Shown: positions 23,354 to 31,675 of the stretch, piece after piece | Layout: every line of letters begins with the position of its first letter | Position numbering within the stretch: the first letter of the stretch is position 1 | Source: Paludibacter sp. | GTDB taxonomy: Bacteria; Bacteroidota; Bacteroidia; Bacteroidales; Paludibacteraceae | Length of the DNA: 64,000 nucleotides | NCBI GenBank assembly: GCA_019163375.1 | Contig: JAFLKK010000001.1 | Span: forward strand, 294,638 to 358,637 | Direction of reading: 5' to 3' | Translations under genes and position numbers: made by a program | The notes under the pieces: model-generated | What the model saw: the letters and a program-made list of their open reading frames with translations, nothing else | The model's database searches: none | What the model was told of the DNA's origin: nothing

Positions 23354-23993
23354 TTTGGATTTTCCAAATAGCCACAAAATGGCAAATGCTTCCGCCAAGT
23401 ACAAACAAATGAAAGATGGCGTGGGTGTACTGAATTTTTTTGAAAGAGTATAATACAGCGCCAACCGTGTAAGACAATCCGCCGGCAATAAGCCAATAGA
23501 GTACAGGCATGGAATTGGTGGCACCTAGCGAATCGATCAATGGTTTGAAAGCGATAACCACGACCCAGCCCATGGCCACATAGCAAATCGTTTCGAGTTT
23601 ACTCCCTTTTTTGAGGTTCATAAAGCTCAACGAAATTCCAAAAACGGCTGCCGCCCAGATAATTCCAAATAACGACCAGCCCCAGCTTCCATTTTCGCGG
23701 AGTACCACCAGTGTAAAAGGCGTGTAGCTTCCTGCAATCTGCACATAGATGGCTGCATGGTCGAACTTGCGACGTATTGCTTTCGTTTTTTGATTTTTTT
23801 CGGCGTGATAAAGCGTTGATGAAAGGTACATGAGCACCATGGAGATGACAAAAACAATGTCGCTGGCTATTGCCCACGGGTTTTGCGATGCGATGGCTTT
23901 TTGTAGCAGGAAAGCTCCGGCTATGATTCCGAACCCAACCCCGATGGCGTGTGAGTAGGTGTTGTATCTTTCTTCTTTGGCTGAATAATTCAT
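23349..23993 (-). CDS. hemolysin III / PAQR family channel protein
   Basis: 214 aa, 7 TM. YSHAIGVGFG...HAAIYVQIAGSYTPF...HLFVLGGSICHF. Confidence 0.88.
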   Translation of the reverse strand: MNYSAKEERYNTYSHAIGVGFGIIAGAFLLQKAIASQNPWAIASDIVFVISMVLMYLSSTLYHAEKNQKTKAIRRKFDHAAIYVQIAGSYTPFTLVVLRENGSWGWSLFGIIWAAAVFGISLSFMNLKKGSKLETICYVAMGWVVVIAFKPLIDSLGATNSMPVLYWLIAGGLSYTVGAVLYSFKKIQYTHAIFHLFVLGGSICHFVAIWKIQI

Positions 23994-24015
23994 AGATGTA
24001 ATAAATGGTTAGCGA

Positions 24016-24483
24016 TTAATGATTAATAGAGCGAAGTGCTTTTTCTATCACATTGTTTTCGAATCCGCGACTTTGAGCGAAGCGGAATAACTTGCCTTGT
24101 TTCTCGTATTCAAATTCGTACTTCAATCCAACCAGTTTTGTTTTCAGGATAGAGGCCAGCAATTCCTCGTATTCACCATCGTCGATGGTGTTTAATGCTT
24201 CTGAAATCAAAGCATTATCTATTCCTTTCCCTTTGAGGGCAAAGGATATTTTAATTTTACCCCATTTGTTGAAACGGAATTTGTCTTTTACAAAGAAGAT
24301 GCAAAAGCGTTTTTCGTTGATAAAATCTTCTGCTATCAGACGTTTGATAATGGTCGATTTATCGTCGCAACCTACGCACCAAGCATCTAATTTGGTTTCG
24401 ACTTCCGATACGCAATGTTCGGAAATAGAGCAATAGGAAGCTGCTTTGTGCAACAATTCCTCTAAAGAATATTCCTTTTTCAT
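24016..24483 (-). CDS. recX: regulatory protein RecX
   Basis: 155 aa with helical repeats. AASYCSISEHC...DFINEKRF...FALKGKGI pattern typical of Bacteroidota RecX. Confidence 0.7.
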   Translation of the reverse strand: MKKEYSLEELLHKAASYCSISEHCVSEVETKLDAWCVGCDDKSTIIKRLIAEDFINEKRFCIFFVKDKFRFNKWGKIKISFALKGKGIDNALISEALNTIDDGEYEELLASILKTKLVGLKYEFEYEKQGKLFRFAQSRGFENNVIEKALRSINH

Positions 24484-24584
24484 GTTTTTTGAAAATAAGG
24501 GTAAGCAGTGATTTTTTTTTGAAAGGACAAATGTAACTATTTTTCTTGTTTTAAGAATGAATTAAAATACATTTTTACTTCAAT

Positions 24585-24616
24585 AAAAAAGAGACGCAGC
24601 CTGTGCGTCTCTTTTA
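24585..24616. terminator. bidirectional terminator after the DUF4349 gene
   Basis: A6-GAGACGCA-GCCTG-TGCGTCTC-T4, immediately beyond the stop at 24619. Confidence 0.8.
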
Positions 24617-24618
24617 GA

Positions 24619-25566
24619 TTATTTAGATTGTTGTTTTCTCAGTCTACGTTTTCTAAACCATTTGCGGATGAGGAAATATAATGCGGTTACAATAATCAGG
24701 AATGGCCACATGCCGAATAACCATAAAATAAAATCAACCATTCCAAACCAGCCTTCAACAATAGATTCTTTCCATTTTTCCCAGAAACTATCGCGTTTTA
24801 CAGGTTTGTAGGTGAAATCTTTTTCTGTTGAGATGGTGAGGTTCAAGGTGCTGTAATCAACACAATCGTTCAAAAAACGCAATCTGCCTTCCGAACTTTC
24901 AATTTCTTCCTGTAACACGCGGATGGCTTGTTCAATCTCAACAATATCTTTAACCGAGCTTGCTTTTTTCATAATTTCATTGTAACGTGCCAATGAATTT
25001 CGTTTACTTGCAAGTCGGGTTTGTAAATCAACAAACTCTTCCGTCACATCCCGAGCGGTAATTTCTTTGAAAAGCACTTTGACGCCGCCGTTTTCTGCCG
25101 ACGAAATAAATTTCTCGAAGCTGATGACCGGGATGCGTATGGTTAGTTGATAGCCCGATGATTGATCTGAATTTTGCAGATTCTCACTGGCGTAGTAGCC
25201 GCCAATACTTTTTACCAATGAATCGATATGTTGTTTTGCTTTTTCAACGTTTTTTACCTGCAATCCAAGTCTGCCATCCTTGATGATTTTTTTCTTGATA
25301 ACCTGCGGAGTTGGTTTTTTAGGTTCTTCGCTTTGTGGACTTGGAGAAGACTCATCTACGGTGGATTCTACGTCCGCAAAATCTACGGCGCCTTGTTCTG
25401 AATTACGCACATCTGCAACAGAAATAGCTACGTCATTTTTTACTTCTGCTTTACTTAATGAAGACATTGCCATAACTTCAGAGTTTGCAGGTGCCTGTTC
25501 GGAGGCTTTTGGTTCGCAAGAATATACTAATGCGGCGAGCGAAAATAGGTAAATAATTTTTTTCAT
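24619..25566 (-). CDS. DUF4349-like lipoprotein with C-terminal TM anchor
   Basis: 315 aa. Signal plus lipobox (LVYSC), a low-complexity linker, a coiled-coil-like core, and C-terminal TM helices. Last gene of the TonB_C/rSAM operon (11-nt gap). Confidence 0.6.
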   Translation of the reverse strand: MKKIIYLFSLAALVYSCEPKASEQAPANSEVMAMSSLSKAEVKNDVAISVADVRNSEQGAVDFADVESTVDESSPSPQSEEPKKPTPQVIKKKIIKDGRLGLQVKNVEKAKQHIDSLVKSIGGYYASENLQNSDQSSGYQLTIRIPVISFEKFISSAENGGVKVLFKEITARDVTEEFVDLQTRLASKRNSLARYNEIMKKASSVKDIVEIEQAIRVLQEEIESSEGRLRFLNDCVDYSTLNLTISTEKDFTYKPVKRDSFWEKWKESIVEGWFGMVDFILWLFGMWPFLIIVTALYFLIRKWFRKRRLRKQQSK

Positions 25567-25577
25567 ATTGATGTGTA

Positions 25578-26591
25578 TTAAACTGTTGGTATGTAGTTGA
25601 TAATCGGGTCTTCTTTAGCTAAAGTGCCAAAACACTGTTCGGATGCTGCCCGGCAACCGCCTTTGCACACCGACCAGTGGGAGCAGGGTTTGCATAGATC
25701 AGGCACGGAGGTCTCCCATTGGGTGGTATAGTCGGAGTAAAGAATTTCTTCCAACTCCTTTTGGTAGATATTGCCGGCCACTACGGGTGAGTGATTACAC
25801 AAGCGTATATTACCGTTTATATCCAGTGTTATTGGGCGTTTAAGTACGTCGAACGAACAATGTCCGAAACCGATAAGCGGATAGTCGGCCGGATTGAGTA
25901 AACAAATGGGTGAGCAAACGTTGGCGGTAAGGCGGAGGTCCAGCTCCATTGCTTTGTCGTTGGCAACCGCAAAAGCACTGCGCAATTCTGCAGCTGTAGC
26001 CGAAACTTCCATGGGATTGGCACAGCCTTTTCCACCGATATTATAACGGTTGAGCATGATGCGTTTGCAACCCAGCGAGTTTATAAATTCGAGCGTTTCG
26101 CCTAATTGATTTACATTATGCCGGGTAATAACCACTACCGGAACCACGCTTCCGCCAAGTTGCAGCACTTCGCGGGTGGAGGTGACTGACTTTTGCCAAC
26201 TGCCTGGCACTTGCACCATGCGGTCGTGAATATCGGCTTGCGCTGAATGGATAGGAAATTCGAACAATCCCACGCCGAGTTTAATGAGCTGCTTGTAATC
26301 CTTGGCTTTGCCCTGCGTACCGTTGCTGATAAGGGTCACCTGCTTGCCTTCCATGCGACAAAACAGTATCACTTCCGCAAAACGCTCCGACAGAAAGGGC
26401 TCACCACCCGTGAATGCTACGTATTGAATATCAGCAACACTAAAAAGTTTTTTAAGCGTCTCTATCGCTTTGGTGTACGAATTAAACGGAACCCGTTCCA
26501 CGGCATCCGTTTTCCATATATTATAACAATATACACAATCGAGGTTGCAGCGGTCGGTGGTTTCAAAAGCGATATGTTGGAGGTTAAGCAT
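25578..26591 (-). CDS. radical SAM enzyme with C-terminal SPASM domain (peptide/protein-modifying type)
   Basis: 337 aa. CNLDCVYC (CxxxCxxC), GGEPF, and a Cys-rich C-terminus CSPIC...CSFD...CNHSP...CKPCSHWSVCKGGCRA. Confidence 0.9.
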   Translation of the reverse strand: MLNLQHIAFETTDRCNLDCVYCYNIWKTDAVERVPFNSYTKAIETLKKLFSVADIQYVAFTGGEPFLSERFAEVILFCRMEGKQVTLISNGTQGKAKDYKQLIKLGVGLFEFPIHSAQADIHDRMVQVPGSWQKSVTSTREVLQLGGSVVPVVVITRHNVNQLGETLEFINSLGCKRIMLNRYNIGGKGCANPMEVSATAAELRSAFAVANDKAMELDLRLTANVCSPICLLNPADYPLIGFGHCSFDVLKRPITLDINGNIRLCNHSPVVAGNIYQKELEEILYSDYTTQWETSVPDLCKPCSHWSVCKGGCRAASEQCFGTLAKEDPIINYIPTV

Positions 26592-26597
26592 ATGTAT

Positions 26598-27296
26598 TTA
26601 TTCTTGTGTTCTGAAAATTATGGGCAATGTATATCGAACGCGAACTGCCTGCCCATTTTGCTTGCCGGGACTAAATTTAGGCATAGCTTTAATTGCTTTG
26701 ACAGCTATAGAATCTAATATTGGATCCAGACTTCGATATATTGTAATGTCTGAAATAGAACCATCTTTATTGACAATAAACCCACAAATAACTTTGCCAT
26801 TGATGTTTGAAAGACTTTCGTTGCTTGGGTATTTAATGTGTCTTTCGAGAAAATTCATTAATTCAGTTTCGCCTCCAGTAAACTGTGGTATTTGGTCAAC
26901 TGTTTCATAAATAGAATTGTCATCCACTATCTCTACTGAGTCTTGTAGGATAACTTCCGTGTCGTAGCAAGTGACCATAGGTTCTACAAAGTGAATGATG
27001 GAATGGTTACTTTTCGATTGTTTTATAGTATCACTTTTTGCAGAAGCTTTTTCTTTAATACTAACTTTAGAAGACTTCGAAACCAATTCAGTTGAATCAG
27101 TTCTTCTAGTTGCATTTGAACTTGTTTGTTGATTATCCGCTTTTTTATTACAACTCGTTAGCCCCAGCCCTAAAATCAATGACCCCAACAGCAATTTCGG
27201 ACGAACAAATACCCGCCACCCACCGGTTTTGTCGGCCAAATAGGCGAATAGTTGGAACAGCACATTAAATGTGTGGAGTTTTATTTTTCTGGACAT
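26598..27296 (-). CDS. TonB C-terminal-domain protein, paralog 4 of the tandem array
   Basis: 232 aa. Shared N-terminal module MSRKIKLHTFNVLFQLFAYLADKTGGWRVFVRPKLLLGSLI, lipobox-like GLTSC, VTCYD motif, and a TonB_C-like end (GKVICGFIV...RSLDP...PGKQNGQAVRVRYTLPIIF). Confidence 0.85.
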   Translation of the reverse strand: MSRKIKLHTFNVLFQLFAYLADKTGGWRVFVRPKLLLGSLILGLGLTSCNKKADNQQTSSNATRRTDSTELVSKSSKVSIKEKASAKSDTIKQSKSNHSIIHFVEPMVTCYDTEVILQDSVEIVDDNSIYETVDQIPQFTGGETELMNFLERHIKYPSNESLSNINGKVICGFIVNKDGSISDITIYRSLDPILDSIAVKAIKAMPKFSPGKQNGQAVRVRYTLPIIFRTQE

Positions 27297-27298
27297 AA

Positions 27299-27865
27299 TT
27301 ATTTCTTTGGGAGTTTAAAGATAACTGGTAGGGTGTATCTGACATTTACCTTTTTTCCATCCTGTTTGCCGGGAATCCACTTAGGCAAAAGTTTTACAAC
27401 TCGTATTGCTTCTTTATCACAAGCTGGTTCGAGTGAGCGTAACACGCTCACATCCCTAATTACACCTGTGCTATCTATAACTATACTTAAGGAAACTTTT
27501 CCTTCAATTTTTTTTTCTATAGCTTTTTCGGGATATTTAATATTTTTCGATAAAAATGTCATTAATTCTCCATCGCCACCCGGGTAATATGCTATTGGAT
27601 CAATAACATAACACCAGATGTTGTCTTTATCTTCATCTGATTGAATGGAGTCTTTTGTATCTTGAGTTTTGTTGATACTCGTTGATTTTTCAGTTTCTTT
27701 GTTCTCTGTCTTTGTTCCACAACTCGTCAATCCCAATCCTACAATCAACGACCCCAATAGCAATTTCGGACGTACAAACACTCGCCATCCTCCGGTTTTG
27801 TCGGCCAGATAGGCGAATAGTTGGAACAGCACATTAAATGTGTGGAGTTTTATTTTTCTGGACAT
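27299..27865 (-). CDS. TonB C-terminal-domain protein, paralog 3
   Basis: 188 aa. Same N-terminal module, GLTSC, IWCYV, and TonB_C motif (YPGGDGELMTFL...EGKVSLSIVIDSTGV...RSLEPACDKEAIRVVKLLPKWIPG). Confidence 0.85.
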   Translation of the reverse strand: MSRKIKLHTFNVLFQLFAYLADKTGGWRVFVRPKLLLGSLIVGLGLTSCGTKTENKETEKSTSINKTQDTKDSIQSDEDKDNIWCYVIDPIAYYPGGDGELMTFLSKNIKYPEKAIEKKIEGKVSLSIVIDSTGVIRDVSVLRSLEPACDKEAIRVVKLLPKWIPGKQDGKKVNVRYTLPVIFKLPKK

Positions 27866-27867
27866 GA

Positions 27868-28443
27868 TTATTCCTTTGGAAGTTTAAATTTTAAGGGTAG
27901 AGTGTATCTCACATTTGTTTTCTTTTTGTTCAGATAATCATATCCGGGAATCCATCTGGGCAAAAGTTTCACAACTCTTATTGCTTCTTTATCGCAAGCC
28001 GGTCCGAGTGACCGTAATACACTCACATCCCTCACTACACCAGTACTATCTATAACAAAGCCTAAGATTACTTTTCCTTCAATTTTTTTCTTGATAGCTT
28101 CTTTTGGATATTTTAAATTTTTGGATATAAATGCCATTAATGCTGCATCGCCGTCGGGGTAAGTTGGCATTTGCTCGGTAACATAGCACCAAACATTTTC
28201 ATCTGTTTTTTTTGATTGTGTAGTGTCTTTGTTGTTTAGTGTCTTGTCATCGTTGGACGTTTTCTTGTTTGATGGATTTTGTGCCACCGCTTGTTCGGAG
28301 CTCATGAGTCCCCAGCCCATAATGAGTGACCCAAGCAGCAACTTGGGACGTACAAATACACGCCATCCACCGGTTTTGTCGGCCAGATAGGCGAATAGTT
28401 GAAAGAGTACATTGAACGTGTGGAGTTTTATTTTTCTTGACAT
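27868..28443 (-). CDS. TonB C-terminal-domain protein, paralog 2
   Basis: 191 aa. Same N-terminal module, VWCYV, and TonB_C motif; roughly 75 percent identical to paralog 3 by eye over the C-terminal domain. Confidence 0.85.
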   Translation of the reverse strand: MSRKIKLHTFNVLFQLFAYLADKTGGWRVFVRPKLLLGSLIMGWGLMSSEQAVAQNPSNKKTSNDDKTLNNKDTTQSKKTDENVWCYVTEQMPTYPDGDAALMAFISKNLKYPKEAIKKKIEGKVILGFVIDSTGVVRDVSVLRSLGPACDKEAIRVVKLLPRWIPGYDYLNKKKTNVRYTLPLKFKLPKE

Positions 28444-28447
28444 GACA

Positions 28448-29056
28448 TTAAGGTTTAAAGATGACGGGGACAGTGTAATAAACCTTCACAACCCGACCAT
28501 TTAGCTTGCCGGGAATAAATTTTGGTAGTAATTTTAGGACTCTTATTGCTTCTTTGTCGCACGTAGGGTCTAACGATCGGAGAATAGTAAAATTGTTTAA
28601 ACTTCCATCTGTATCAACTATAAACCGGCAAATCACTTTTCCTCCAATACCATTGTAGCATTGAACTATAGGTTGTGGAGTAATGTTTTTATGGATAAAT
28701 GCTATCATAGCACTATCTCCACCAGGATACTGTGGCATTTGTTCAACCACATCAAAAATAATATTGGCAGTATCTATAGGCTCAGTTACTCTTTCATAAC
28801 ATGTAACAATTGGTTCATTGTGTATAACTAATGGTCCGTCAAATTTAAATGAAGTTTTTTTTAAACCACTAGACCCTTTTTTTAATTGAGTTTGAGCATT
28901 TATTGGCATGCTGCTTGCCAATCCTAGCCCAACTATCAATGAACCCAACAGCAATTTTGGACGTACAAACACCCGCCATCCACCGGTTCTGTCGGCCAGA
29001 TATGCGAATAGTCGAAAGAGCGCATTGAATGTGTGGAATTTGATTTTACTTGACAT
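28448..29056 (-). CDS. TonB C-terminal-domain protein, paralog 1 (promoter-proximal)
   Basis: 202 aa. N-terminal module MSSKIKFHTFNALFRLFAYLADRTGGWRVFVRPKLLLGSLI, VTCYE, and TonB_C motif (RSLDPTCDKEAIRVLKLLPKFIPG). Confidence 0.85.
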   Translation of the reverse strand: MSSKIKFHTFNALFRLFAYLADRTGGWRVFVRPKLLLGSLIVGLGLASSMPINAQTQLKKGSSGLKKTSFKFDGPLVIHNEPIVTCYERVTEPIDTANIIFDVVEQMPQYPGGDSAMIAFIHKNITPQPIVQCYNGIGGKVICRFIVDTDGSLNNFTILRSLDPTCDKEAIRVLKLLPKFIPGKLNGRVVKVYYTVPVIFKP

Positions 29057-29079
29057 AGTTCATAGATTTTAAGATTGGA

Positions 29080-29087
29080 CAAATATA
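29080..29087 (-). promoter_or_regulatory. -7 promoter box (CAAATATA = reverse complement of TATATTTG) for the TonB_C/rSAM operon
   Basis: TAnnTTTG match on the - strand, 24 nt upstream of the ATG at 29056. Confidence 0.5.
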
Positions 29088-29348
29088 GTAATTTATTGAT
29101 TATATTAACAACAAATAATATATTTATTTTCATTTTGTTTATACTGTTGATAACTTTTAGTGAGAACTATTGCATATTTAATATTGACTCGATATGTTTC
29201 GTGTGAAAATAGATGAATGGTTGATAATTAAGGCATACGTCTATGAATACCTCGAAGGAATAATGGAAATTAGGAGTTTGTAATGGGTGTGTTTAACGGG
29301 TTTTAAATAAAAAATCAATAAAAATAACAAACATAGATTACTAATTCA

Positions 29349-29621
29349 GTCAGAAACCTTGGTAAAACCGTCAGTCTGCTCGGTAAAACTGTCAGACCGC
29401 TTCGTAAAACTGTCAGACCGCTCGGTAAAACCGTCAGAACTCTCGGTAAAATTGTTTATTTGCTTAGTAAAACTGTCTGAGCGTTCGGTAATTTTGTTAT
29501 ATTCCTTCGTAAAACTGTCAGAAGCCGGGGTAAAACTGTCAGACCGCTCGGTAAAACCGTCAGAAACCTTGGTAAAACTGTCAGAACTCTTCGTAAAATT
29601 GTCTTGTAGCTTCGTAAAGTT
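29349..29621. repeat. 13 tandem copies of a 21-bp unit (consensus GTCAGAnnnnnnnGTAAAACY)
   Basis: Units delimited by hand at 29349, 29370, 29391 and so on to 29601. A conserved ~14-nt core GTAAAAC(T/C)GTCAGA alternates with a ~7-nt variable part. Units 4 and 10 are identical, as are units 1 and 11 apart from the last base. Confidence 0.95.
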
Positions 29622-29709
29622 GGAATGGAGCTGGGTGACTTTTTAATCACAGGGGGTAAGCGCAACTCAAAAGCTCAGCCCCGAAGGGGTTGAATATCTC
29701 GATTAGATA

Positions 29710-30576
29710 CTATTTTCTATTCACCAAATAAATCCCCACCAACACCACTACTGCCCCCGCCATTTCTTGCAGCGTAAGCATTTCGCCAAGAATAGGAACC
29801 GAGAAAATAGCTGTGAAAACGGTTTGGCTCAGCAAACTTACCGACGCCACCGTTGGGCGGATATGTCCCAGTGCCTGATTGATGGCCAGCCAACCAAGTA
29901 GTTGTGGTATGAAACCCAATGTACCCAATGCCAACCATGTTTGGGTGCTAAAACCCCAGAGTGGGGTAGAAGTGAAGAGGCAAATCAGACCCAGTAATAC
30001 CGTGCTCGAAATCATGGATATGGTGGTGAATGAAAAGGTGTCGAGCGAGTTTCGGCCTTTGCGCACGGTGAGCAGGTAGGCGCCGTAGAACATGCTGGCA
30101 AAAATGGCCAGCGCATTGCCAAAGTTCAGATGTGCTTCCAATATCTGATTTACACCAATAATAATGGTTACCCCTAAAATGGAAATAATGGTGCCTATCC
30201 AGAAAATTCTGGTGGGTTTCTCTTTCATAAAAAGGAGCGCACCAATGCCCACCCACACCGGAGCCAGATTGGCCAAAAGGGTAGAGATAGACGCTTTTGA
30301 AAGCATGATGGAGCTGTTCCACAACGCAATGTCGCAGGCAAAAAGCAGTCCGCAGATAATGGCTACTTTTACCCCTTTTATGTCGGTAATGGGCTTTTTG
30401 AAATAGAGCCACACGGGAATGATACCAATGGTCCCGAACAACATGCGATAAAATCCTGACCCAAATCCACTAATCCCGGCCAGTTTTACCAATATTGCCG
30501 ACCACGAGATGCATAGCACACCAAACAGTAATAAAAGGTAATGAATCCAAGGGTGGTTTTTATGCATTTTAATCAT
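29710..30576 (-). CDS. EamA/DMT-family transporter
   Basis: Ten predicted TM segments in two EamA-like halves. The track ORF extends to 30678 only by translating the heptamer repeat (SFVFCLL x3), so ATG 30576 or 30567 is preferred. Confidence 0.85.
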   Translation of the reverse strand: MIKMHKNHPWIHYLLLLFGVLCISWSAILVKLAGISGFGSGFYRMLFGTIGIIPVWLYFKKPITDIKGVKVAIICGLLFACDIALWNSSIMLSKASISTLLANLAPVWVGIGALLFMKEKPTRIFWIGTIISILGVTIIIGVNQILEAHLNFGNALAIFASMFYGAYLLTVRKGRNSLDTFSFTTISMISSTVLLGLICLFTSTPLWGFSTQTWLALGTLGFIPQLLGWLAINQALGHIRPTVASVSLLSQTVFTAIFSVPILGEMLTLQEMAGAVVVLVGIYLVNRK

Positions 30577-30593
30577 AATAGTGGGTAGATAAG

Positions 30594-30770
30594 AAAGACA
30601 AAAGACAAAAGACAAAAGACAAAAGACAAAAGACAAAAGACAAAAGACAAAAGATGAAAGATGAAAGATGAATGACAACGGACAGCAGATAAAAGATAGA
30701 CGAACTGATTACTGATTACTGATTACTGTTCACTGATAACTGAAAAGATTACTGATCACTGAACGAATCA
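30594..30770. repeat. ~25 consecutive heptanucleotide units: (AAAGACA)8 (AAAGATG)3 ... (CTGATTA)3 CTGTTCA CTGATAA CTGAAAA ...
   Basis: Counted by hand: AAAGACA x8 at 30594-30649, AAAGATG x3 at 30650-30670, CTGATTA x3 at 30705-30725. Lies between the EamA start and the prmC stop. Confidence 0.9.
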
Positions 30771-31590
30771 TTCTGTTATTACCCGAAATATCTTTTCGCA
30801 ATTCAATTTCCGAGAAACCCAACGAAGCGAGTAATTCCACACATTCCTTTCCGTAGTCGCGATGGATTTCGAAATATAGTTTTCCATTCGGGTTTAATTG
30901 CTTTTTTGCAAAAAGTGCAATGTGACGGTAGAAAAGTAGAGGGTCATTATCCGGTACAAACAAAGCCAGATGGGGCTCATGCTCCAGTACATTTGCTTCT
31001 ATCTCGCTTTTTTCCAACTCAGGAATGTAAGGTGGATTGCTGACGATAATATCCCATTTCTTGCTTTGATCCGCCACGTTTAGAATGTCGACTTTCGAAA
31101 ACTCAACGTCCAGTTTATTTAACCCGGCATTGCTGCGAGCTGTCTCTAGCGCTTTGTCCGAGATATCAAAAGCCTCGACTGTCGCATTTGTAAATTCATG
31201 CTTCAATGCAATGGCAATGCAGCCGCTTCCGGTTCCAATATCCAAGATGTTCAAGGCCTCGCTGCGGTTATTTTCGGAGCGAATCCAATCCACCAATTCC
31301 TCTGTTTCGGGGCGGGGAATAAGTACCGAATCGTCTACCATAAATGGGAGTCCGTAAAACTCCGTTTCACCCAAAATGTATTGAATTGGAACGTGTTTTT
31401 TCAACAATTCGATAAAACTTTCAATTTCATGACGTTGTATATCAGAAAAAAGAGTATTTTTGTTAAGGATAATTTGAGTGCGCGAATAACCGGTTAGCTT
31501 TTCGATGATCAGATTCGTGAAGCTTCGGATTTCCGTTTCGGGATATAGTCCCTGAAGTTCCGTTTGAATATGGATAATAGAGGATTGCAT
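30730..31590 (-). CDS. prmC: peptide chain release factor N(5)-glutamine methyltransferase
   Basis: SAM motif DIGTGSGCIAI and catalytic NPPY (VSNPPYIP). The track start at 31608 overlaps a promoter-like TGCAAAGATA, so ATG 31590 is preferred. The last ~12 codons read into the heptamer tract. Confidence 0.88.
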   Translation of the reverse strand: MQSSIIHIQTELQGLYPETEIRSFTNLIIEKLTGYSRTQIILNKNTLFSDIQRHEIESFIELLKKHVPIQYILGETEFYGLPFMVDDSVLIPRPETEELVDWIRSENNRSEALNILDIGTGSGCIAIALKHEFTNATVEAFDISDKALETARSNAGLNKLDVEFSKVDILNVADQSKKWDIIVSNPPYIPELEKSEIEANVLEHEPHLALFVPDNDPLLFYRHIALFAKKQLNPNGKLYFEIHRDYGKECVELLASLGFSEIELRKDISGNNRMIRSVISNLFSYQ

Positions 31591-31675
31591 AGTGCAAAGA
31601 TAACTCAAATGTGCTAATATGACAATAATGCAATGTGCTAATTGGAAACATTGCGTTAATTACTAATTGTGAATT

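Follow-up and report, generated by a model that had tools for sequence, protein, structure and literature searches.

Cys-Tyr-containing exported proteins encoded with a radical SAM/SPASM enzyme: a candidate maturation system of Bacteroidales

What does a radical S-adenosylmethionine (SAM)/SPASM enzyme act on when its gene directly follows a row of genes for TonB_C-domain proteins? The question is raised by six minus-strand open reading frames (ORFs) at positions 24619 to 29056 of a 64,000-nucleotide (nt) stretch of DNA from Paludibacter sp. (contig JAFLKK010000001.1, positions 294,638 to 358,637), referred to here as the window. Read 5' to 3', the ORFs encode four TonB_C paralogs, the radical SAM/SPASM enzyme, and a DUF4349 protein, with intergenic gaps of 4, 2, 2, 6, and 11 nt. 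An initial annotation of this DNA had described these six tightly packed genes; their coordinates were confirmed, and Pfam and NCBIfam matches agree with its protein assignments. It had also proposed that the TonB_C paralogs are substrates of the enzyme. Part of that proposal stands: the proteins encoded upstream of the enzyme are very probably its substrates, and their shared N terminus belongs to the system, but TonB_C is not a conserved feature of such partners. The window holds one example of a common Bacteroidales system that consists of the enzyme and one to nine partners predicted to be exported, most of them as lipoproteins. We propose, with moderate confidence, that this is a two-part maturation system in which one or more substrate proteins would be modified at a Cys-Tyr (CY) dipeptide, before export, by the enzyme encoded behind them.

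The enzyme and its exported partner proteins

The window enzyme matches the Radical_SAM model of Pfam (E value, 3.5e-20) and the SPASM model PF13186 (23.6 bits against a cutoff of 21.5). Both its CxxxCxxC motif and its Cys-rich SPASM end, which had been noticed at the outset, are invariant in 74 homologs; the former comprises C15, C19, and C22, and the latter the auxiliary-cluster residues C226, C230, C245, C265, C300, C303, C309, and C313. The AlphaFold2 model of the enzyme (predicted local distance difference test [pLDDT] of 93) shows a confident SPASM fold, for which the nearest solved structures are anSMEcpe (template modeling [TM] score, 0.72-0.74) and the peptide maturases SuiB, PqqE, and SkfB; by sequence, the best matches in the PDB are SkfB (E value, 4e-14) and PqqE. 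A signal peptide is not present. Because the radical SAM core begins at residue 8 of 337 and the model has no extra N-terminal domain, we conclude that the enzyme lacks an N-terminal PqqD-like domain, that is, the recognition element (RRE) of ribosomally synthesized and posttranslationally modified peptide (RiPP) pathways.

The initial annotation had suggested NCBIfam assignment and a genome neighborhood survey as checks on its proposal. When the former was run, no model came near its cutoff, the best match being GeoRSP (TIGR04303) at 93.6 bits against a cutoff of 400 (distant homologs of the enzyme score 80 to 102 bits). Searches of NCBIfam, Pfam, and PDB sequences gave no specific name for the enzyme. 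A known, unrelated substrate of the enzyme subfamily had been named as grounds for giving up the proposal; among curated families, none assigns the enzyme to a different substrate. At an E value of ≤1e-20, the enzyme family comprises 846 clusters at 90% identity, spread over Bacteroidales from gut, rumen, termite, peat, and sediment samples. Two homologs with 73 to 74% identity (P0030 and P0034) are 585 amino acids (aa) long and, by precomputed Pfam annotation, carry an extra PF14903 domain, which suggests that fusion variants of the maturase exist.

Gene neighborhoods were surveyed from both sides. The enzyme-seeded scan was alignment based, used one genome per species, and yielded 80 loci with 44 to 98% enzyme identity, nearly all from Bacteroidales or other Bacteroidota. 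Cultured carriers include Dysgonomonas gadei, D. hofstadii, and D. termitidis, as well as Parabacteroides sp. FAFU027 from the homolog search; the window itself is 97 to 98% identical to Paludibacter-type assemblies. Where an upstream ORF was present, the adjoining same-strand gene encoded a signal-peptide-like hydrophobic region (h-region) followed by CY in 65 of 71 enzyme loci. In all, 142 such partners were collected, with 1 to 9 per locus and lengths of 71 to 392 aa. The last partner gene lies ≤15 nt from the enzyme gene or overlaps it in 50 of the 65 loci, with a 4-nt overlap in 17. All-against-all clustering of the neighbors recovered only two conserved families, namely, the enzyme and the partners. 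No conserved protease, exporter, RRE protein, DUF4349, or sulfatase family was found by this clustering of the 80 loci, and no conserved third gene that could supply a separate RRE.

The reverse scan was seeded with a narrow alignment of the N-terminal module (N-module) shared by the partners, without the remainder of the proteins, and covered 79 metagenome loci. The enzyme lies directly downstream in 50 of these, 27 loci end too early, and 2 lack the enzyme, which gives 50 of 52 informative loci. Thus, the neighborhood survey found coupling in both directions, and we regard the pairing of enzyme and partner as highly probable. What the survey did not support is TonB_C as the defining feature of a partner, as the initial annotation had it: the domain is the commonest passenger but occurs in only 50 of 138 partners, leaving 88 without it; CarboxypepD_reg occurs in 10, and about half have no Pfam domain. 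All four window paralogs do carry TonB_C (PF03544; E values of 6e-13 to 7e-21), with TIGR01352 also above its cutoff. At the other extreme, 49 mature parts are ≤100 aa long and rich in T, D, P, K, and E, with the shortest at 26 to 60 aa. In one set of loci (L062:2117-4774, and also L051, L059, and L061), six to nine tandem genes for tiny partners (precursors of 71 to 151 aa), each with a lipobox and one to three CY dipeptides, precede one radical SAM gene, an arrangement that resembles a RiPP precursor array.

What the partners do share begins at the N terminus. Among the four window paralogs, 39 of residues 1 to 41 are invariant, in line with the near-invariant stretch of 41 to 42 aa described initially. 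Over codons 1 to 46, pairwise synonymous divergence (dS) is 0.5 to 0.9 and the ratio of nonsynonymous to synonymous divergence (dN/dS) is 0.02 to 0.15, so that most differences are synonymous; the TonB_C parts are near saturation. These dS and dN/dS values mark the paralogs as old and their N-terminal peptide as strongly constrained by purifying selection, and recent duplication or gene conversion alone is insufficient to explain its likeness.

In the window, the N-module consists of a hydrophobic or amphipathic helix (LHTFNVLFQLFAYLA) and a basic turn (DKTGGWRVFVRPK), together MSRKIKLHTFNVLFQLFAYLADKTGGWRVFVRPK, followed by LLLGSLIxGLGL, the h-region of a signal peptide. In paralogs 3 and 4 this stretch runs into a lipobox (LTSC); paralogs 1 and 2 have AxA followed by Gln at its end, the usual context of signal peptidase I cleavage in Bacteroidetes. 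The AlphaFold2 model of paralog 3 (77 sequences) has helices at residues 7 to 23 and 27 to 43, a disordered linker at residues 45 to 89 (pLDDT below 50), and a confident TonB_C domain from about residue 90. As such, what had been taken for a cytoplasmic module is a helix-turn-helix whose second helix is the h-region of a signal peptide. Nor does the GG that had been read as the end of a leader persist, since other clades have TNGA, TKGF, or RGKSE at this place. A double-glycine leader was rejected on this basis (GG is replaced by NG, KG, or GK) and because no C39 peptidase or ABC exporter is conserved in the 80 enzyme loci.

Across clades, the architecture of the N-module is kept while the sequence of its first helix differs entirely. 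Among the enzyme-seeded partners, this helix is amphipathic, of membrane-spanning length, or short, depending on the clade; it has about 15 residues in the window clade, where it is amphipathic, and about 22 hydrophobic residues in distant clades. The basic turn holds a conserved Gly, often with Trp or Phe, and leads into a K-x-K-x-G h-region. Judged by sequence patterns, which are the basis of all cleavage and lipidation calls given here, a strict lipobox was recognized in 88 of the 142 partners and AxA-Gln in 24 (112 together), and most of the remaining 30 have a Cys soon after the h-region. A profile of the N-modules of all clades retrieved 5 short matches from a collection of 5.8 billion proteins, a count that is uninformative on family size because short queries are restricted by the word index.

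Downstream of the h-region, the partners carry one to four copies of a motif, (V/I)(T/S/M)-C-Y-(D/E)(P/V)..P..D. This Cys-Tyr dipeptide, which the initial annotation had not mentioned, probably is the best marker of the likely modification site. In an alignment of 138 partners with a mean column identity of 6%, the only near-invariant positions are the Cys, the Tyr, and one Gly of the signal peptide. Tyr follows 244 of the 358 Cys residues downstream of the h-region, compared to 14 ± 3.7 CY dipeptides in shuffles of the same sequences, although such enrichment figures over the partners are partly circular because the filter that defined a partner demanded CY downstream of the h-region. Independent figures come from three sources. 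The first is the set of first upstream genes (65 of 71). The second is a neighbor control, in which 6.2% of Cys residues precede Tyr in 788 neighboring proteins; from a background rate of 0.093 CY per 100 aa, we estimate that about 11% of partner-sized proteins would contain CY by chance. The third is a tabulation of the 120 best homologs of paralog 3, of which 106 have both the N-module and CY, 4 have the N-module without CY (three of these of the type found at locus L122, described below), 10 have neither, and none has CY without the N-module (Fisher P = 9e-12).

In paralog 3, CY lies within the predicted disordered segment at residues 45 to 89, which would leave it accessible. In some close relatives, it is found in a loop inside TonB_C (QCYNG), like the second CY of paralog 1, which suggests that where exactly the dipeptide sits matters less than its presence. 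Three explanations or motifs were considered for the dipeptide and rejected. A structural disulfide is at odds with the many small partners whose only Cys residues are those of the lipobox and CY. A second lipobox is excluded by the lack of a hydrophobic stretch before CY and by T, M, or S at position -1. The C-x-P-x-R motif of anaerobic sulfatase-maturating enzymes (anSMEs) and the x-Y-G motif of spliceotides do not fit the CY logo.

Loss of CY where the enzyme is lost was observed at L122 (5435-7392, corresponding to 24619-27296 of the window). This locus keeps the downstream neighbors of the window, from the RecX-like gene onward, and lacks the genes for the enzyme and the DUF4349 protein. 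Its last partner ORF (463 aa) has a repeated TonB_C and stops inside a TonB_C domain, which looks like the scar of a deletion. Both N-module proteins of L122 lack CY, and one reads FIEY-ETMP where the window has WCYVTEQMP.

The segment between h-region and passenger adds a further indication of where the partners go. In the window, the linkers have many K, T, S, N, and D residues and no Pro-rich stretch. The general O-glycosylation sequon of Bacteroidetes is D-(S/T)-(A/I/L/M/T/V). It occurs 278 times in the mature parts of the partners, with the linkers enriched, compared to 63 ± 7 in shuffles, and at least one copy is present in 125 of 142 partners, including all four window paralogs (linkers, aa 67 to 131). 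This enrichment supports a periplasmic or surface destination, and the partner proteins may be glycoproteins.

Proposed maturation pathway and alternative explanations

In the pathway that we propose, the precursor consists of an N-terminal helix and basic turn, an h-region ending in a lipobox Cys or AxA-Gln, a disordered linker rich in T, D, P, and K with one to four CY motifs and sequons, and a variable passenger (TonB_C, CarboxypepD_reg, or none). The cytoplasmic enzyme would recognize this precursor while it still awaits export, probably by the helix and turn of the extended signal peptide, which perhaps also delay export, and would make a small, local radical modification at Cys-Tyr. Sec export would follow, with removal of the signal peptide by signal peptidase II or I; most partners would become lipoproteins, and their linkers would probably be O-glycosylated.

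Precedents exist for parts of this scheme. Bufferins are RiPPs whose precursors have Sec signal peptides (PMC11626156), and, by an argument taken from that work, the modification should be compact, since the product must pass SecY. Enteropeptins contain a six-membered thioether ring that a radical SAM enzyme installs between adjacent residues (PMC12395415). We favor two candidates, a thioether ring formed between the Cys and the Tyr of one molecule and an oxidized Cys, yet any specific chemistry is, as a named proposal, unlikely to be right. The other parts of the scheme deserve more credit: CY is probably the modified site, and the role of the N-module as a leader is a tentative assignment that could fall either way and that we slightly doubt. 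In its boldest form, the proposal would define a new class in Bacteroidota of radical SAM-modified, Sec-exported lipoproteins and lipopeptides, in which a bipartite signal peptide also functions as the leader and is cut off by signal peptidase II or I, the CY modification is compact (e.g., an adjacent thioether ring), and the cassette has been grafted onto passengers ranging from 30-residue glycosylated lipopeptides to TonB_C and CarboxypepD_reg proteins. We regard this version as speculative, with the chances leaning against it.

Several observations weigh against the proposed pathway. Its basis is comparative genomics, part of which shares the circularity of the CY filter noted above. The enzyme has no RRE through which it might bind a leader, and for bufferins the signal peptide is dispensable for modification (PMC11626156). 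The N-module is well conserved in the enzyme-less L122 lineage and may for that reason serve a role besides enzyme recognition, and a CY partner at locus L141 has no enzyme gene beside it. Sec substrates do not typically carry 30 extra residues ahead of the h-region. The first helix of distant clades has the length needed to cross a membrane, such that an uncleaved hairpin anchor is conceivable. Finally, the Cys-Tyr dipeptide might bind a metal or act in redox chemistry, neither of which would call for the enzyme.

The alternative that survives best, which we nonetheless consider improbable, develops the hairpin: the N-module would stay in place as a permanent helical anchor in the inner membrane, perhaps docking the enzyme, and the Cys after the second helix would not be lipidated. 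Such an anchor would suit the helix-turn-helix predicted by AlphaFold2 and the membrane-spanning length of the first helix in distant clades, and it would account for an N-module that is far more conserved than ordinary signal peptides and persists at L122. It sits poorly, however, with the amphipathic, roughly 15-residue first helix of the window clade and with the Cys, or AxA and Gln, that stands at the expected distance past the h-region in most partners of all clades. The alternation of these two endings within one operon is easier to explain as a choice of cleavage sites.

We give a distinctly smaller chance to the possibility that the enzyme modifies the partners elsewhere, either in the N-module, to yield a product derived from the signal peptide, or at another linker residue, with CY serving as a metal, redox, or periplasmic cross-link site. 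Bioactive peptides derived from signal peptides do exist in other bacteria, and within clades the N-module is the most conserved part of the partners. Between clades, however, the sequence of the N-helix differs wholly while C-Y is invariant; in the enzyme-less lineage it is CY that was lost and the N-module that was kept; and, among the 120 best homologs of paralog 3, CY never occurs in a TonB_C protein without the N-module.

Little likelihood also attaches to a substrate outside the locus, be it a small molecule or a distant protein, with the upstream genes encoding merely coregulated envelope proteins. The low-scoring best profile matches of the enzyme do include the cofactor enzymes AhbD, NirJ, PqqE, and MoaA, and the lack of an RRE would agree with such a role. 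Nevertheless, this explanation has to contend with near-obligate two-way adjacency over 44 to 98% enzyme identity, frequent 4-nt overlaps, the lack of any other conserved neighbor family, and the joint loss of CY and enzyme at L122.

Least credible is the reading first given to the operon, in which TonB_C proteins are the specific substrates, a 41-residue cytoplasmic leader is cut near GG, and DUF4349 is part of the system; although TonB_C is present in all four window partners and is the commonest passenger (50 of 138), and DUF4349 closes many Paludibacter-clade operons and is missing together with the enzyme at L122, this reading is largely refuted by the neighborhood survey, in which 88 of 138 partners lack TonB_C (many having domainless mature parts of 26 to 100 aa), GG is not conserved and is followed by an h-region with a lipobox or AxA-Gln end, no C39 peptidase or exporter is conserved nearby, and DUF4349 occurs in 2 of 80 genome loci.

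Operon layout and flanking DNA

The features of the operon are collected in Table 1, in which partners 1 to 4 are the four paralogs in order of transcription.

Table 1. Features of the operon, in window coordinates
Feature	Position	Strand	Details
Candidate -7 promoter box, TATATTTG	29087-29080	minus	fits TAnnTTTG; ends 24 nt 5' of first ATG
Partner 1	28448-29056	minus	202 aa; N-module aa 1-46 (28919-29056); predicted signal peptidase I type end PINA|QTQ
Partner 1 CY sites	aa 86-87 (28796-28801); aa 133-134 (28655-28660)	minus	IVTCYE; VQCYN, within TonB_C
Partner 1 TonB_C	aa 135-201		Pfam
Partner 2	27868-28443	minus	191 aa; N-module aa 1-46 (28306-28443); predicted signal peptidase I type end AVA|QNP
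Partner 2 CY	aa 86-87 (28183-28188)	minus	NVWCYV; directly before TonB_C (aa 109-188)
Partner 2 O-glycosylation-type sequon	aa 73		DTT
Partner 3	27299-27865	minus	188 aa; N-module aa 1-46 (27728-27865); lipobox LTSC, Cys49
Partner 3 CY	aa 85-86 (27608-27613)	minus	NIWCYV; TonB_C aa 108-185
Partner 4	26598-27296	minus	232 aa; N-module aa 1-46 (27159-27296); lipobox LTSC, Cys49
Partner 4 CY	aa 110-111 (26964-26969)	minus	MVTCYD; TonB_C aa 153-229
Radical SAM/SPASM enzyme	25578-26591	minus	337 aa; CxxxCxxC aa 15-22 (26526-26549); eight Cys aa 226-313 (25653-25916)
DUF4349 lipoprotein	24619-25566	minus	315 aa; C-terminal hydrophobic segment; E value, 4.8e-52
Terminator-like hairpin	24587-24615	minus	12 bp, then T run; directly 3' of DUF4349 stop

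The consensus of the -7 box of Bacteroidetes promoters is TAnnTTTG. A promoter-like box and a terminator had been proposed for the operon, and both were located; in a generic scan for sigma-70 promoters and terminators, neither kind of site was commoner than in shuffled sequence, and both calls therefore rest on position and on this consensus rather than on statistics. A second box of the TAnnTTTG type, TACATTTG (24526-24533, minus strand), stands right after the terminator hairpin and about 40 nt 5' of the RecX-like gene (24016-24483), which fits a separate transcription unit.

DUF4349 had been counted as a member of the system. In many metagenome loci of the Paludibacter clade it is the last gene of the operon, sometimes behind additional TonB_C genes; it was not found outside that clade in the loci surveyed, and only 2 of the 80 genome loci have it. 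It is best regarded as an accessory or passenger particular to that clade and, in the window, as a candidate cotranscribed gene. In loci L111 (7709-9315) and L120 (7728-8240), extra TonB_C lipoprotein genes lie between those for the enzyme and DUF4349; their products have ordinary signal peptides and no CY. One ORF of this region (L111:8239-8748) starts with MSRKIKF, like the N-module, but has neither the helix and turn nor CY.

The intergenic DNA between the EamA-like transporter gene and the operon promoter holds a 21-nt tandem repeat of about 12 copies (29349-29603; consensus GTCAGAACCCTTGGTAAAACT) with higher-order periods of 42 and 63. Its consensus had no match in 15 related loci at up to 5 mismatches. 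At L003 and L122, ORF translations 5' of the first partner gene are likewise repetitive. Two heptamer repeats lie farther upstream. The first, AAAGACA in 8.7 perfect copies (30594-30654), falls inside the long ORF called for the EamA-like gene, whose real start is probably the later MIKMHKNH; the second, ACTGATT in 8.7 copies (30704-30762), lies just 5' of that ORF and overlaps the 3' end of the gene at 30730-31608. No Rfam family was found in 23900-31000.

Relation to known systems and implications

Among characterized systems, anSMEs offer a close parallel. They are cytoplasmic enzymes, occurring in Bacteroides among others, whose target is a Cys within a short linear motif; the proteins they act on, sulfatases, are full size and are exported afterward. 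The window enzyme shares with them a SPASM architecture of about 340 to 370 aa without an RRE, and anSMEcpe is among its nearest folds. The motif here, in contrast, is (V/I)(T/S/M)CY(D/E) rather than C/S-x-P/A-x-R, the substrates are not sulfatases, and the gene for the enzyme immediately follows those for its presumed substrates, which have a dedicated N-module in common. The NCBIfam model for anSME is not among the 25 best matches of the window enzyme.

Bufferins resemble the proposed system in their long precursors, in the use of a Sec signal peptide in place of a classical leader, and in the modification of Cys in the cytoplasm (PMC11626156). Their Sec export, signal peptidase cleavage, and periplasmic product (PMC11626156) would also have counterparts in the window partners. 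The enzymes, however, are DUF692/MNIO and DUF2063 proteins instead of radical SAM enzymes, and bufferins lack the lipobox, the N-terminal extension, and Cys-Tyr; they bind copper, of which there is no hint here.

TIGR04133 and TIGR04134 represent another pairing of an uncharacterized SPASM enzyme with a putative lipoprotein encoded beside it. The window enzyme scores 56.5 bits against the TIGR04133 cutoff of 425 and thus belongs to a different family. TIGR04134 gave no match at an E value of ≤0.01 for the four window partners and seven other partners scanned; the best partner score, that of a CarboxypepD_reg protein (L025), is a weak 22 bits, below the cutoff of 39.8.

Sactipeptide and ranthipeptide maturases (SkfB, CteB, PapB, and enteropeptin synthase) are SPASM or twitch enzymes that form thioethers from substrate Cys residues, and they act on short cytoplasmic precursors, usually with an RRE and with dedicated proteases and exporters. 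The window system, in contrast, has no RRE, protease, or exporter, and its presumed substrates bear signal peptides and reach about 390 aa; a thioether would be hypothetical here.

The partners of the window share with TonB energy transducers a C-terminal TonB_C fold and the public annotation "TonB family protein." They lack a proline-rich spacer, and their N terminus looks more like an extended signal peptide that can be cleaved than like an anchor coupled to ExbBD. Matches to the TonB equivalog models reach 17 to 20 bits against cutoffs of 265 to 315, and neither exbB nor exbD is among the six operon genes or their immediate neighbors. For the enzyme-partner system at large, the TonB_C domain is dispensable.

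In all, the locus departs from anSME, GeoRSP, TIGR04133/TIGR04134, RRE-dependent maturases, double-glycine leader systems, and TonB proper, and it agrees with SPASM maturases in the CxxxCxxC motif, the SPASM Cys residues, and adjacency to the partners as putative substrates. No description of the system was found in the literature searched, including a graspetide survey and a paper on RiPP mining in Bacteroidales, and public records offer only the names "radical SAM protein" next to "TonB family protein." From its sequence features, the enzyme appears to be a radical SAM/SPASM maturase for which both the substrate class and the motif are new.

The "TonB" annotations of the partners are misleading, since these proteins are probably not energy transducers. 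The model predicts modification of Cys-Tyr and is directly testable with two genes. If it is correct, radical SAM/SPASM maturation would extend to lipoprotein precursors, and a signal peptide would serve as the leader for a maturase, a logic documented mainly for bufferins, in which the enzymes are of a different class.

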